In this document: in pieces, positions 29,780 through 35,720 of the stretch
Layout of the letters: each line of letters starts with the position of its first letter
Numbering within the stretch: position 1 is the first letter of the stretch
The notes under the pieces: model-generated
Told to the model about the DNA's origin: nothing
The model's input: the letters and a program-made list of their open reading frames with translations, nothing else
The model's database searches: none
Program-made: the position numbers and the translations under genes
Source of the DNA: Hormiphora californensis
Taxonomy: Eukaryota; Animalia; Ctenophora
Length of the DNA stretch: 64,000 nucleotides
NCBI GenBank assembly: GCA_020137815.1
Contig: CM035358.1
Coordinates: 5,890,001-5,954,000 of the forward strand
Direction: 5' to 3'

Positions 29780-32700
29780 TGACAAGAAGACAGAGCCATC
29801 TTTGACAAGTAATTTTACGTTTTAGAATTCAGAGAAACCGAAAGGTCCATTTCCAGAAATTCCCAACCCCTGATCAAGAACCCCTTGCCTTTGGTACCAT
29901 TGCTACCTCTTCGCTATCGTGCTGTGTAAAATTCACAAGAAGTTGGTAATATTCACACACTGAATGTCACAAACATCTTGTCTAAGTATACCCTAAGATT
30001 CTGATTTGGACTCACATGTGCAATTGCTTTGCGGTTAGCGTAGAGAGAGCAAATGGAAATCACGGGGGCATCGCACTTCTCTATCCTCAACAGGGGGGTA
30101 TGGCTTGTTATGTGCTGGGCCAGCATATTCACCTGTGTAGGGGACAAGCGTTGCAGGGGAACCTGATGTTAATATTAATAATGTTATAGGGGGTGTGGCT
30201 TGTTATGTGCTGGGCCAGCATATTCACCTGTGTAGGGGACAAGCGTTCATGGGGGAACCTGATGTTAATATTAATAATGTTTGGATACAACTAATGCAGT
30301 CGGACCCCGATTTACCGGGATGCTCCGGGGAAAGAGTTTTTCCCGGTAAATCGGGGTCCTACTGTATAACAACTTTGGTACAGCTGGGTCACGTATTTCT
30401 AGGACTCGATCACACCAGCTGGGGGAACATATATTTACCTGTTTTTGGTCAGTTGGTGTCGAGACAAGCTTGGCCCCCCACGAATTCCTCCGATGAGCAC
30501 GGTAAACATATGGGTGGTTTTCGAAGGTAAATCCCTTTAATGCTCCCTTATCGGTCAACAGCTGTTAAATAAGGAAGGGTGTTTAAGAGCGCCATGAGAA
30601 TCAAGCATGTATTTAACAACATAGTCCTAGTGATGGTACCGCATGGGTGAGAATCAAGCATGTATTTTACAAAACCACCCACAAAGTTTTAGCACAAGTC
30701 CTATGGTTTTAAACAGTGGTAAAGGTACCACATGTGTAACACGTGTTATAAGTAGTACTGCACGTGCAGTAATTTACCTTGTAATCGGGGACTTTGCAGT
30801 TTTGTTCCCGTGCGGCCGTATAGAAGGTGTTTAGGTCGGTCAACTTGAGAGCCTCCATGGGCGGCAGACTTAGCAGGTCCAGGGTGTCTATTACTTTCTC
30901 TATCGCCTGCATGGGAGAAAAGTGGATGGAATAGATGCAACAAAATGATATGCAGATCACTTCCCAGTTCCCAGCCACCTAAAACGAAGCCTTTCGCCCG
31001 ACGCCCAAACAGGACAAGTTAATTAACAAACAAACTAATTACCTGGTGATCCTCACTGCAACTGAAGTGGTTCAAAGGAATGAGAAGAGATGGTTTTACT
31101 TCAAATAGGATGTTCCATAACGTGTCAATGTAGATGTCCGGTCCTGAACCAACCGGCGGCTGAAATATATAGTTCGGATATAATAAGAGATTCGCAATCA
31201 AAACTGTCACCAAAGTATTTAGAAGCTAAGTCGTTTAAAGTCAACGTATATCACAACTACAGACACACTTCACGTACTATTTAACCCATCTTACACACAA
31301 AAAGGGCTGGAGAAAATAAATGGTAATAGTGGGAGGGATTACTCACCTCTACAAACTCAATTTTCAAACAAACAAACAAAATCAATTGATTTAATAAGAT
31401 CGGTTACCATGTCACCATGACAACCTCACCTAAACTCACCTCAAAAGGGTCTGGAAGCCAGTGAAATGTGTCGCATGCCCGAGACCAGGCTAGAGGCGCA
31501 CAAATGTACCGCCTACTCTCCATTCCTATTACGGTGTAGCCCATTGACCTGTGTTAAAAGGAGTCGTTATGTTCTAACCCGGGGTGGAACAGGCTCGAAC
31601 ACTAGGCAACAAGGGAGTTGCAAGAATTCAGTTTTTCATAGTTGGTACTTATAGTAGCATATTGACATGTATATGGGAGTGGCCAGTTGGTACATGGTAT
31701 ACCGTGATGGTAGACAACTTGGAGAGGGGAGACGATCTTATTTTCCATTATTTACTAATGAAATGGATAATGAACTGACATGACACGATCTTATTTTCCA
31801 TTAATGAACTGGTACTGGAAGAAAAATGGAATAATTACTTGAAATGCCTAGCAATGTGAATGCTCAGCGGGGACCGTGCCCCAATTATCGCCACGGAATG
31901 GTTCGAGTATGTCTTTCCCCAAATCCCCGATAAGAGCAATCTGTAGATAATGCAGAGAATCCATATCGGTAGAAACAAGATGACAGCCTAGGAAAATGAG
32001 TAATATGACGTTATTATGGACCTCGATCTACCGGGTCCCGATTTACCGGGCAAACCCCTTTCCCCCGAGTATCCCGGTAAATCGGGGTCCGACTGTATTA
32101 GCCAACAAGGGTAGTTTTATTGCCTAATAGGGAGTAGTAAGATTAGTTTAATAAAGAGTTAGTTAGATGTCATGCAAACTTTTCATAATCTGTAATGGGT
32201 CAGAACTCAGAAGACGTCATATCAAGACACGTCATATCAAGACGTGTTTCTTTTTGTAATCGCTCTCGCTCGTGCCCTAAATTCTAACTGTTTTTCAGTG
32301 AGCCGGTACACGTCATGAATTAAGTAATACTAATTAATTAGTAATAATACTTTTCATAATCCGACATAATCTGTAATGATAGAAACCTGATGAAAGCGTC
32401 AGAAGATCGGTATTTGGTGCCGTCACAGTATGGCGTCAATACCTCACCCTAAATTCTAACTGTTTTTCAGTGAGCTGGTACACGTCATGAATCATGATAC
32501 TAATTAATTAATTAGTCACGATACTAATTAATTAATTAGTCACGATACTAATTAATTAATTAGTCACGGTACTAATTAATTAATTAATTACTAACCATGG
32601 TGATGTAGTGGAATGTTTTGAAGGTTAGTCTAATGGACTCTCCCCAGGTTAACCTAGGTTTAACTGCCGCGGCTACAGGTGCTGCTGCAGTCTTATTGAT

Positions 32701-35700
32701 GTTGAGTTGCTGACGCGAGGGTTGTCGTCGGAGCTGGAACTTTTCCTCCCGATCCTTCTGGACTTTATTCAAAACTTGATTGATATCTGAAATACGTAAC
32801 TTGGTTTATATCTGAAATGTAACTTGGTTAATATCTGAAATGTAACTTGATTGATATCTGAAATGTAACTTGGTGTATATCTGAAATGTAACACTAATAG
32901 CCAAGGGGATTCGGTACTTGGTATCATGTATAATGACTATATTGACTATCCAAAGAAGAATGAAATTTCCATGCACGATATTACATTATTACCCGAAGCT
33001 TTAGACTCATCTTTGAAACATTCACTTTTACCTACTACTACTACCTTATTCAAACATTTGATTTTTTAAATTCGGTAGAGTTACAAACTTACAATTTGGC
33101 CGAGCCCGTGTGTAAAATTCAAGTTCATTCCCCACACAGTTCATAAATTACAGAACTCTCGCATTGTATATATCCCTTTGCAAAACAAAAAGACTTTTTA
33201 AATAAATGAAGAGTGAAGATGCTGGATGACAATTACAATAACATAAGAGCAGATTGAATGTAGACACTGTCTGTATACAGCTGGTATAATGGGCTATTTG
33301 GAATCTCCAGGACTTTAAACTTAAACGAAAGAAGCTGGGAAAGAATCAAATCCTCAAACCCTTGATATGTATGTCACAAAATTCAAGGAACAAAATATAC
33401 TTGGTTGAGGAAGGAAAACTACAAACAAACAAGTGCTTACTGGATAAATTATGCTCAAAACTCGACATGTGTTTAAAAGTACTTCTCGCCTATCTACAAT
33501 TTCCGGCTGCTCTCTTATCTATCGCTGTTCCCTACTGCACTTCTCTCTCTCTCTCTCTCTCTCTCCCCCCCTCTCTCTCTCTCTTTCTCTCTCTCTCTCT
33601 CTCTCTCTCTCTCTCTCTCTCTCTCTCTCTCTCTCCCTCTCTCTCTCTCTCTCCTCTCTCTCTCTCTCTCTCTCTCTCTCTCTCTCTCTCTCTCTCTCTC
33701 TCTCTCTCTCTCTCTCTCTCTCTCTCTCTCTCTCTCTCTCTCTTTCTCTCTCAATTCCGCATTGGTACTCAAGTGAAGAAGATAATTGTGTGTACACTGG
33801 GAGAGAGAGAGAGACAGAGATAGAGCATAGGCATACATTCGAGGACAAGCTCATCGCTGTAAATGTGTATCTTACCTCCTCTTACTATCTAAATTCTATC
33901 TTTCTTTCTACGGTATCTCTATACAGGTGTAATTTATATCTACCGGTCACTATCTCTCTATATCTACCGGTCACTATATCTTCAATTCTTGAGAAACGTC
34001 AATTGTGGTAACACTTTCATATCTCTCTCTCTTATCACTTCTATCTTATCTCTCTCTTATCACTTCCATCCTATCTCTCTCTTATCAACTCTATCCTATA
34101 TCATCTTATCATTACGCACTCTCCTTACATGCTCTAATTCCTAAATGGAAATGACTCGCCAGCATCTCTCTATCTAAACAGTGTTTAGTATGATGGTGGA
34201 AGTTCTCGAACCGATTACAGTCTTGGACGACTGACAACATACCAAGATCAGTTCTTAAGAAGACTGAGGAAAGTCCTGGAACGTTCTATAAGTGGATGAC
34301 ATATATTAATAAGTGATGATGTGCATAGTGAAAAGATTACATAACAAGAAAATGGAGGAAAAGTCATACAAAGGAAATAAAAGTCATAAGAATTATCGTC
34401 AAGTTAACTTGTGAAGACAATTGTATAGATGGTCAGCATCGGCTAATAAAACTTGCTAGGCTCAGTGCTCACGGACACAGTACCAAACCCACAGGATATT
34501 CCAATATACGCAGCCTAGTGGGCTACTATAATATCCTAATAATTAGGATATACATGCAGAAAAAAAACCACAATTCATCAAGCAGAAAAAAAACCACATT
34601 TCTTGACCTCATATTCGAACGGAGGAACAAGGTCTTTGGAACAGAGAGCGGCCACTCAGTCTCCTATATATCTCTCTTGATCTTGTTTTGTGATATACAG
34701 AATTAGCGATCAAGTGTGTCTAGTTAGTGAGCGTCCTTATGTCGCTATAGCAACTACTGCAATCTTGAAGGGATCTTGGTAAATCCCATGAACCGTTTAT
34801 GTTGCAGTCTGCACATTTGTAGAGTAACCCCTTACTCGACAAGTCTGCATGGGAAGTAGGCAATGATCACATGCTCATTGTATATCCTGTCACATTGCAA
34901 CATTGTGGAGTATCACTTGGGACCAAACTGAATTATTTTAGCTGGTACTCACGGGGTTCTCCATTTTCTAAAAAGCGCAGGGATTACGCAAGGATTACGC
35001 AAGGAAATACAGAACACATCAGTATCATGGCAACTGGCCAACTTCAGATTCAGCTGCCGGTTCACATGGTGAATTCATTCTAAAGTTGTCGAATTTTGTA
35101 CTGATATAGTACTCGAAGGCAATATAGTACTCGAATGCAATTTTAAATCTTGCGATGACAACCTTTAAAAAAACCTTAAAAAAACCTTTTAAACTTTCAC
35201 TTTAAACTTGCCGAATGATTTGATTTCATTCTTGTTTCTTTATTAAACTAAGTATCTTTAACGAGCAGGTAAACTACCTGTAAAGCAACATACGTGCTGG
35301 TAACAATGTCGAATACTTAACAGTAAAAGTGTCCATGTTATGGTTGAAAATGACCGAGTTATGGCGTGAAACGTCTCAAAATGGTAACAAAAAGTTGACT
35401 TTTAAAATTGTTCTTTGCAACTTTTGTAGTCGAAGGGGGCTCTACTTTTGTGCACATGTTATAAACCAGGAACCGACCGAAGCAAGTAAACAACCAATCA
35501 GAACTCGTTATTTAGGTCACGTGACTGGTTATCAGCCAATCAGGGACCAGTATTTCCTGATTCGGTCGGTTCCTGTTATAAACTTACCGACATCCTGAAG
35601 TGGGTTTGTGTATGTCTGGGAGGTAACGGAGGATCGTCTGGAGCTGTTGTTAGAGCCAACACTGTGCTGGTGGACGATTCCAGGAACCCCGGTTAACTTG

Positions 35701-35720
35701 CCCCATATCCCCTCATTCAT
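29780..35720 (-). CDS. Intron-containing divergent ATP-grasp protein, MysC (mycosporine-glycine ligase)-like; 3' end frame-disrupted
   Basis: Phase-consistent exons 35720-35588, 34275-34243, 32786-32596, 31987-31839, 31548-31440, 31159-31043, 30906-30778, 30534-30439, 30132-30016; translation includes AVILFLPIWILCII...VAIIGARSPLSIHIARHFKSMGYTVIGMESRRY...WSRACDTFHWLPDP...YIDTLWNIL...LLIPL, collinear with recalled MysC motifs. Confidence 0.68.
32510..32592. repeat. Tandem palindromic AT-rich unit (gatactaattaattaattagtcac)n
   Basis: 3-4 units adjacent to an exon donor. Confidence 0.8.
32773..32892. repeat. ~23-bp tandem repeat duplicating a splice acceptor (minus strand tttcag|ATAT)
   Basis: Five copies of atatctgaaat(g/ac)taacttg. 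Confidence 0.8.
33541..33752. repeat. (CT)n microsatellite; one of many CT/GA tracts (e.g. 36891-36943, 38553-38720, 47345-47470, 56245-56420, 57290-58240, 59330-59880, 62746-62855, 63810-63902)
   Basis: Direct inspection. Confidence 0.95.
35468..35575. mobile_element. MITE family C (~108 bp, caggaaccgaccgaa...ttcggtcggttcctg), hAT-like, 8-bp TSD
   Basis: 15-bp TIRs; TSD TTATAAAC. Confidence 0.9.

Follow-up and report, generated by a model that had tools for sequence, protein, structure and literature searches.

What might a relative of a sunscreen-pathway gene do in a comb jelly? The 64,000-nucleotide stretch of the Hormiphora californensis genome analysed here (the window) carries on its minus strand, from 35720 to 21349, an intron-bearing gene related to MysC, the 4-deoxygadusol:glycine ATP-grasp ligase of mycosporine-like amino acid (MAA) synthesis. 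An initial annotation, covering 29780-35720, had presented it as a possible relic of this UV-sunscreen pathway. Its structure, three of its splice junctions, its orthologs, its family placement and the substitutions fixed in it can be read directly and answer part of the question: this is an intact, spliced member of the MysC family whose catalytic residues have been replaced. As for its function, we lean towards a pseudo-ligase, that is, a likely non-catalytic binding or scaffold protein predicted to be anchored in the membrane, and not a sunscreen enzyme.

Gene structure and transcript-type contigs

The gene is composed of 11 exons separated by ten GT-AG introns and specifies 548 codons with zero internal stops. 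Its parts are listed below (identities are to the probable ortholog from Mnemiopsis leidyi; RNA-type contigs are contigs from two datasets presumed to be RNA).

35588..35720, minus strand: exon 1, starting with ATG; N-terminal extension (aa 1-44) with a phase-consistent GT donor
32596..32786, minus strand: exon 2 (aa 45-108); basic/helical extension and start of the hydrophobic helix
31839..31987, minus strand: exon 3; hydrophobic helix (aa ~101-127) and first strand of the N-domain
31440..31548, minus strand: exon 4; N-domain, the best-conserved exon (81% identity to Mnemiopsis)
31043..31159, minus strand: exon 5; joint 30905/31042 in an RNA-type contig
30778..30906, minus strand: exon 6; site of the first ATP-binding Lys, now Leu258, with contig joints on both sides
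30439..30561, minus strand: exon 7; lid domain, second Lys position occupied by Arg297; joint 30561/30778
30016..30132, minus strand: exon 8; MysC Gln268 position occupied by Ile334, next Glu kept (tblastn E 3e-12)
28932..30015, minus strand: intron 8; contains the two 'disrupted fragments' of the initial annotation and a short dispersed repeat (29711-29778)
28785..28931, minus strand: exon 9; kept acidic Asp402, aligned to Glu276 of AccC (67% identity to Mnemiopsis)
25904..25999, minus strand: exon 10; N-C-K-P-W (aa 416-420) in place of E-C-N-P-R (tblastn E 3e-8)
21349..21684, minus strand: exon 11; MysC-type C-terminal tail and stop (tblastn E 3e-28)

The end of the gene is located 8.4 kb beyond the 3' limit (29780) previously given. 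All the peptides quoted by the initial annotation do occur on the minus strand of that interval, the GT-AG borders confirm that its exons are phase-consistent, and the hydrophobic segment it described is present in exons 2 and 3. Instead of the nine exons proposed there, the interval holds eight real ones and three more follow at 28931-28785, 25999-25904 and 21684-21349. The 'disrupted fragments' (29957 and 29809) taken for the 3' end are both situated in intron 8, and the Mnemiopsis protein aligns instead to the exon at 28931-28785 (tblastn E 1e-13), where there is no RNA-type contig. Since the gene is complete and conserved, it is not a relic and its 3' end is not disrupted.

When the window was searched with a profile of four orthologs, the window sequence itself being excluded, the top nine of the 2679 six-frame pieces corresponded to exons 3-11 (E 3e-34 to 1e-10) and exon 2 ranked tenth (E 0.011); exon 1 was not found among these pieces. 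Exon 1 is the weakest-supported exon and lies outside the range compared with RNA-type contigs, and its start aligns with that of the Mnemiopsis isoform P0014 (blastp). Exon 2 (tblastn E 1e-4) is covered by a contig in which it is joined to exon 3 (joint 31986/32595), and exon 3 reaches 2.54 on the Kyte-Doolittle scale (19-mer) with 53% identity to Mnemiopsis. The 11-exon model outscores an initial 12-exon model against all six family proteins. The latter, which incorporated a peptide from intron 8, has an open frame, a weak donor and a non-canonical acceptor, and is contradicted by the orthologs.

The two datasets presumed to be RNA, X1 (a seawater run from one study, at low depth) and X2, were available as contigs only and were compared with eight of the ten introns (introns 2-9) at a likeness cut of 85. 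X1 contigs bridge three of the eight, introns 2, 5 and 6, with sides of 74, 35 and 71 letters respectively, while no bridging contig was found among these low-depth contigs for the other five. The transcript check proposed with the initial annotation was thus borne out for these three junctions, the remaining five being without a bridging contig. One X1 contig (30015-30136) spans exon 8 without a differing letter, and its ends, 30136 and 30015, are those expected from introns 7 and 8 (GT donor after 30016); no loose contig end was seen at intron 8 in a second contig mapping. An X2 contig matches exon 10 at 46 of 53 letters. Five of the six exonic letter differences in X1 are silent (four singly and the fifth together with its codon neighbour, two of them falling in one Leu codon) and one exchanges Ile for Val. 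A tandem partial duplication (30094-30281, 95-nt spacing) includes the acceptor of intron 7 and the first part of exon 8. Splicing to the upstream acceptor copy would cause a frameshift; in the X1 contig it is the downstream copy that is used.

Orthologs and placement in the MysC family

Used as a query, the last exon gave 7 matches among 1.84 billion representatives, corresponding to five relatives and two chance repeats. An alignment search added a 499-aa protein and Mnemiopsis leidyi ACHWQZ_G015928 (KAL5250011.1, KAL5250012.1), which sits on a 14.6-Mb contig, is annotated as 'hypothetical protein' and, with 50-52% identity to the window protein, is likely its ortholog. The relatives other than Mnemiopsis come from marine datasets and are 40-55% identical to the window protein (55% for P0002; 40-43% for P0011, P0017 and P0009); members of the family are mutually 40-89% identical. 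We infer that the whole family, beyond Mnemiopsis, belongs to ctenophores. The fragments P0012 and P0013 break at or near the borders of window exons 6 and 11 (by eye), suggesting shared intron positions. The introns and the orthologs agree with the domestication proposed by the initial annotation.

Two different N-termini are found on a common body both in Mnemiopsis (P0010/P0014) and in a second lineage (P0011/P0017), which suggests alternative first exons. Another ortholog, L121, is split at 329-331 by one TAA where its relatives have Gln; a sequencing error or an allele is likelier than a changed code, as all 10 of its remaining Gln codons read CAA or CAG. P0003 carries ~42 residues identical to part of exon 11 followed by unrelated sequence, and may be a chimeric contig or an interrupted allele.

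Other searches returned little. Pfam gave no relevant match on the 11 single exons or on the orthologs, Mnemiopsis included, and the last exon alone gave nothing usable in a word-based search, the ESM Atlas, PDB sequences or plasmids. A motif scan yielded four loci, one real (L121) and three due to chance; a separate metagenome scan with N-terminal patterns yielded zero relatives among 207 stretches. Viral contigs yielded no relative of MysC. The Mnemiopsis protein had no match in the 20 non-animal genomes aligned in a genome-index search, a result which does not amount to absence, and the family profile matched in one of 301 genomes of the G001 phylum, this match being itself a MysC.

For comparison, a bacterial motif scan gave 120 loci, of which the 72 with a complete frame of 380-560 aa were used and 48 dropped. 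Within 2.5 kb of the first 80 motif loci, mysA occurs at 61, mysB at 70 and mysD at 50, and L002 is a whole mysA-mysB-mysC-mysD cluster; the scanned set therefore represents bona fide MysC. This 72-sequence set is biased to the one motif by which it was chosen, and its N-terminal columns are thus invariant by construction.

The MysC profile matches the window protein collinearly over positions 26-452 of 455, as the initial annotation had anticipated, with 78.4 bits for the final model and 94.7 bits for the 12-exon model, while 200 shuffles of the latter reached at most 2.3 bits. Applied without any gene model, it has as top three six-frame matches the pieces holding exons 11, 4 and 9; exons 4 and 11 match it even alone (E 0.006 and 9e-6). 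Residue 109 is the first to be matched, at profile position 26, which gives a net N-terminal extension of ~83 aa and not the ~115 aa previously suggested. Identity to MysC is ~20%. Among NCBIfam profiles the orthologs match only NF005315, the family of bona fide MysC (E 2e-24 and 8e-26), with scores of 86 and 91 bits that are far under its curated 406-bit cut-off. In the reverse test, all 72 MysC obtain 45-90 bits with the family profile, and the 49 non-MysC relatives (from 702 sampled genomes) at most 26 bits.

The trees, in which the MysC rows are all bacterial (none fungal, algal or cnidarian), group the family with MysC, with an SH-aLRT of 97 under LG+C20 (44 rows; stem of 4.3 changes per column) and 99/99 under LG+G4 (26 rows; stem of 2.3 changes per column). 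In both, the long stem of the animal family is followed by short branches. The AU test rejects a position with the non-MAA sister family (p 0.02) and does not reject nesting inside MysC (p 0.12). By profile and tree, the sequence family nearest to the window gene is therefore MysC, represented here by bacteria, in keeping with the descent initially proposed. The first-strand motif of the animal family resembles that of the sister family more than that of MysC, and long stems are hard to place.

With MysC (Ava_3856 type; NF005315/PRK06849; for example L002) the window protein shares the full-length collinear match, an N-terminal hydrophobic helix, the C-terminal tail and the clade. It differs by ten introns, the extension, the replaced catalytic motif and first Lys, and has no cluster partners within the window. 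The non-MAA PRK06849 relatives (Pseudomonadota and Planctomycetota; P0020, L127-L128, L147-L155) possess an N-terminal G-A-R-x-P motif closer to the animal family than that of MysC. They are distinguished from this family by their low scores on its profile (at most 26 bits), an intact E-C-N-P-R (12/12) and another C-terminus; P0020, unlike the animal proteins, is devoid of the N-terminal hydrophobic helix. These bacterial sister proteins (L127, L128, L147-L155, P0020) match NF005315 under its cut-off with the catalytic motif intact, and neither mysA, mysB nor mysD was found in the fetched flanks of the 11 sister-family loci.

Active-site residues and predicted fold

MysC has 121 columns with a conservation of 95% or more. 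In the animal family 33 of these are unchanged, 18 are mixed and 70 are replaced, and 27 of the replaced columns carry one new fixed residue. Among the 149 positions invariant in the family, 79 differ from MysC. The sequences indicate fast change followed by strong constraint.

The replacements reach the catalytic center. MysC E343, N345 and R347 (L002 numbering) correspond to N416, K418 and W420 in all six family members, so that E-C-N-P-R, intact in 72/72 MysC and 12/12 sister proteins, reads N-C-K-P-W in 6/6. The first ATP-binding Lys (MysC K186) is Leu, Val or Thr in the five members covering the site, and the Q268 position is Ile, Val or Met. A profile alignment maps MysC K186, Q268, D330, E343, N345 and R347 to E. 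coli AccC K116, E201, E276, E288, N290 and R292, residues which we take to bind ATP, Mg and substrate. In ATP-grasp enzymes two Mg ions are bridged by one carboxylate, as stated in PMC13397572. The metal-binding E-x-N with its following Arg, expected of an active ligase, is absent from the family; of the two ATP-binding lysines the first is lost and the second is Arg or Lys. The initial annotation had suspected substitution at the DDK Lys, LK, QE and IECNPR: the DDK Lys and ECNPR are indeed lost, while QE retains its Glu and the Lys position of LK holds Arg or Lys. Judged on these catalytic residues, the window gene is not a MysC. A fold predicted to be kept, lost catalytic residues and a conserved gene together correspond to the sequence pattern of a pseudoenzyme.

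The fold was modelled on the Mnemiopsis ortholog, standing in for the window protein. AlphaFold2 with a 74-row alignment (pLDDT 82.5, pTM 0.81) predicts a three-subdomain ATP-grasp fold. Foldseek and VIA-align match the model to ATP-grasp enzymes throughout (best E 2e-13), consistent with the fold initially expected; the best structural match has a Z of 20.6 and an rmsd of 4.3 over 289 residues, and all top PDB matches are ATP-grasp proteins with Z ~20 over ~290-330 residues. The solved enzymes 2pn1, PurK (3q2o), an L-amino acid ligase (3vot) and PylC (4ffl) superpose with Z 19-21 and rmsd 3.2-4.3 over 281-330 residues at 9-14% identity, a common fold which in itself shows no function. ESM Atlas features of P0002 give 0.96 to ATP-grasp clusters, with 10/10 best matches in one clan; as P0002 was used alone, this result is independent of the MysC-dominated alignment. 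A long helix precedes the domain (62-99 in Mnemiopsis), with a family hydropathy peak of 2.3-2.6, and one membrane helix is predicted near residues 101-127 of the window protein, after a variable N-terminal tail.

Genomic context and possible functions

No profile match to mysA, mysB or mysD was found in the 64-kb window (best E 0.75). Ctenophores are said to lack MAAs in a passage of PMC8627573, which cites one Antarctic survey (Karentz 1991), and in the relevant section of PMC3640398 (2013) the shinorine genes are limited to anthozoans among animals. The anthozoan ATP-grasp genes of this pathway (Acropora, Nematostella), compared here by their description in that section, are likewise MysC-family genes of an early-branching animal, and differ in being reported together with all four pathway genes. 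Nine Mnemiopsis transfers, none of them an ATP-grasp, are given in the corresponding part of PMC6005172; by its description there, the uncharacterised ML219316a, which has 4 introns and a best bacterial E of 7e-43, is probably a gene other than this one. Ctenophores are unmentioned in PMC3083659 and PMC6165330, and no description of the present family was met in the literature listed on mycosporines, gadusol, MysC/ATP-grasp and ctenophore transfers, which was covered exclusive of the supplement of PMC13342648 that may bear on novelty.

The window also contains the following element.

21895..25366, no strand assigned: transposon-like element that fills intron 10; its terminal inverted repeats are long (260 nt, 98%; 193 nt, 93%)

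A scan of one internal frame of this element showed no transposase domain. An LTR-retrotransposon integrase frame (18475-20013, minus strand) shows rve, H2C2 and SH3_Tf2-1 domains. The intronless 1140-aa frame at 8108-11530 (minus strand) carries LDL-receptor class A repeats and, by eye, a tail resembling a seven-helix receptor. The short dispersed repeat of intron 8 (29711-29778) recurs in inverted orientation in intron 1 (35484-35550) and has a high depth in the X1/X2 contigs.

In the pseudo-ligase that we favour, the ATP-grasp fold would persist as a module for binding or scaffolding, probably located at the membrane. Asn now stands at the position of the bridging Glu (AccC E288), Lys at that of Asn290, Trp at that of Arg292 and Leu, Val or Thr at that of Lys116. 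With these four lost, the phosphorylated intermediate would presumably not form, and replacement of the metal- and phosphate-binding catalytic residues makes a non-catalytic binding or scaffold role likely. Lys418 would fill the metal position, either pairing with Asp402, which is kept, or holding an anionic ligand in the absence of metal, and selection would now maintain a different surface, the one reflected in the 79 divergent invariant positions. The replaced catalytic residues also support the 'pseudo-enzyme or new activity' of the initial annotation. Several points weigh against this interpretation. The inactivity of the window protein is deduced from a residue criterion, and proteins judged dead by motif have later turned out to be active (SidJ, USP53). 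Asp or Glu is retained at D330 (AccC E276), Arg or Lys at K227 and Glu at E269 after Q268, and the mapping onto AccC is a weak, motif-anchored alignment (hhalign probability 6%, E 0.006). The fold alignment includes 68 MysC among its 74 rows, which makes the model lean toward MysC; a shallow alignment gave a pLDDT of 45.5, and a sequence search of a PDB copy found no MysC structure. Finally, MysC, which acts in a soluble pathway, also has a hydrophobic helix (above 1.8 in 66/72), and such a helix need not be a membrane anchor.

The main rival to a pseudo-ligase, which we regard as possible and distinctly less probable, is an enzyme with a rewired site, where Lys418 would replace one Mg and the fixed polar residues would bind a new substrate in a new kinase- or ligase-type reaction. 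The replacements are fixed and not drifting (the 27 columns with one new residue), many of the new invariant residues are charged, and Asp402, Arg/Lys297 and all three subdomains are kept. However, four canonical site residues have been lost together, among them the bridging carboxylate kept by all 84 bacterial relatives examined, and the first Lys position varies freely (L/V/T). Participation in mycosporine or gadusol chemistry, either by making mycosporine-glycine or by binding dietary MAAs, seems improbable to us. MysC is the nearest family in the reverse test, grouping with the sister family is rejected, and anthozoans carry the pathway according to the section of PMC3640398 cited above; yet the 70 columns replaced in all members include most of the polar ones, partner genes have no match in the window, and the survey statement in PMC8627573, a secondary citation, speaks against MAAs in ctenophores. 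With its catalytic residues and the majority of the polar residues invariant in MysC replaced, and no partner gene in the window, the UV-sunscreen pathway of the initial annotation found no support.

Two further explanations concern the region first described. The peptide at 29959-29907 in intron 8 resembles a MysC segment lost by the real exon 9 and could be a minor alternative exon restoring it, which we judge highly unlikely: on a MysC block matrix it comes 3rd among 52,336 peptides of the window and first among the 322 of its intron (p roughly 0.02), and it adds 16 bits to the MysC profile score, but its splicing would depend on a weak donor together with an acceptor that is poor or non-canonical, and it lowers the score to 6/6 family proteins and is covered by no contig (low depth). 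Moreover, it was its likeness to MysC that led to its selection, and two unrelated peptides obtain higher scores; chance is the best account of its modest MysC likeness. That the gene is a decaying relic or a pseudogene whose 3' end is disrupted, as the low identity to MysC and this intronic peptide might suggest, is hardly credible given the 548-codon open frame, ten GT-AG introns, spliced contigs, full-length orthologs and mostly silent variants.

A broader scenario, which we advance as speculative, is that comb jellies acquired MysC ahead of the split of their main lineages, made no use of the sunscreen pathway or later dropped it, and rebuilt the protein as a phylum-specific membrane protein with a Lys in place of the catalytic Mg, a metal-free ATP-grasp sensor or enzyme whose chemistry would be new. 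With this gene, the animal range of the MysC family reaches past anthozoans to a group in which mycosporines are reported to be lacking; it is also a foreign-looking gene that is missing, by function, from the Mnemiopsis transfer screen as outlined in PMC6005172. It offers a clear example of an enzyme that changed rapidly and was afterwards held fixed in its new state. Because a database record exists for the Mnemiopsis ortholog and this animal is amenable to culture, the function is directly testable, and a natural ATP-grasp protein with a fixed N-C-K-P-W would test which residues the superfamily needs.

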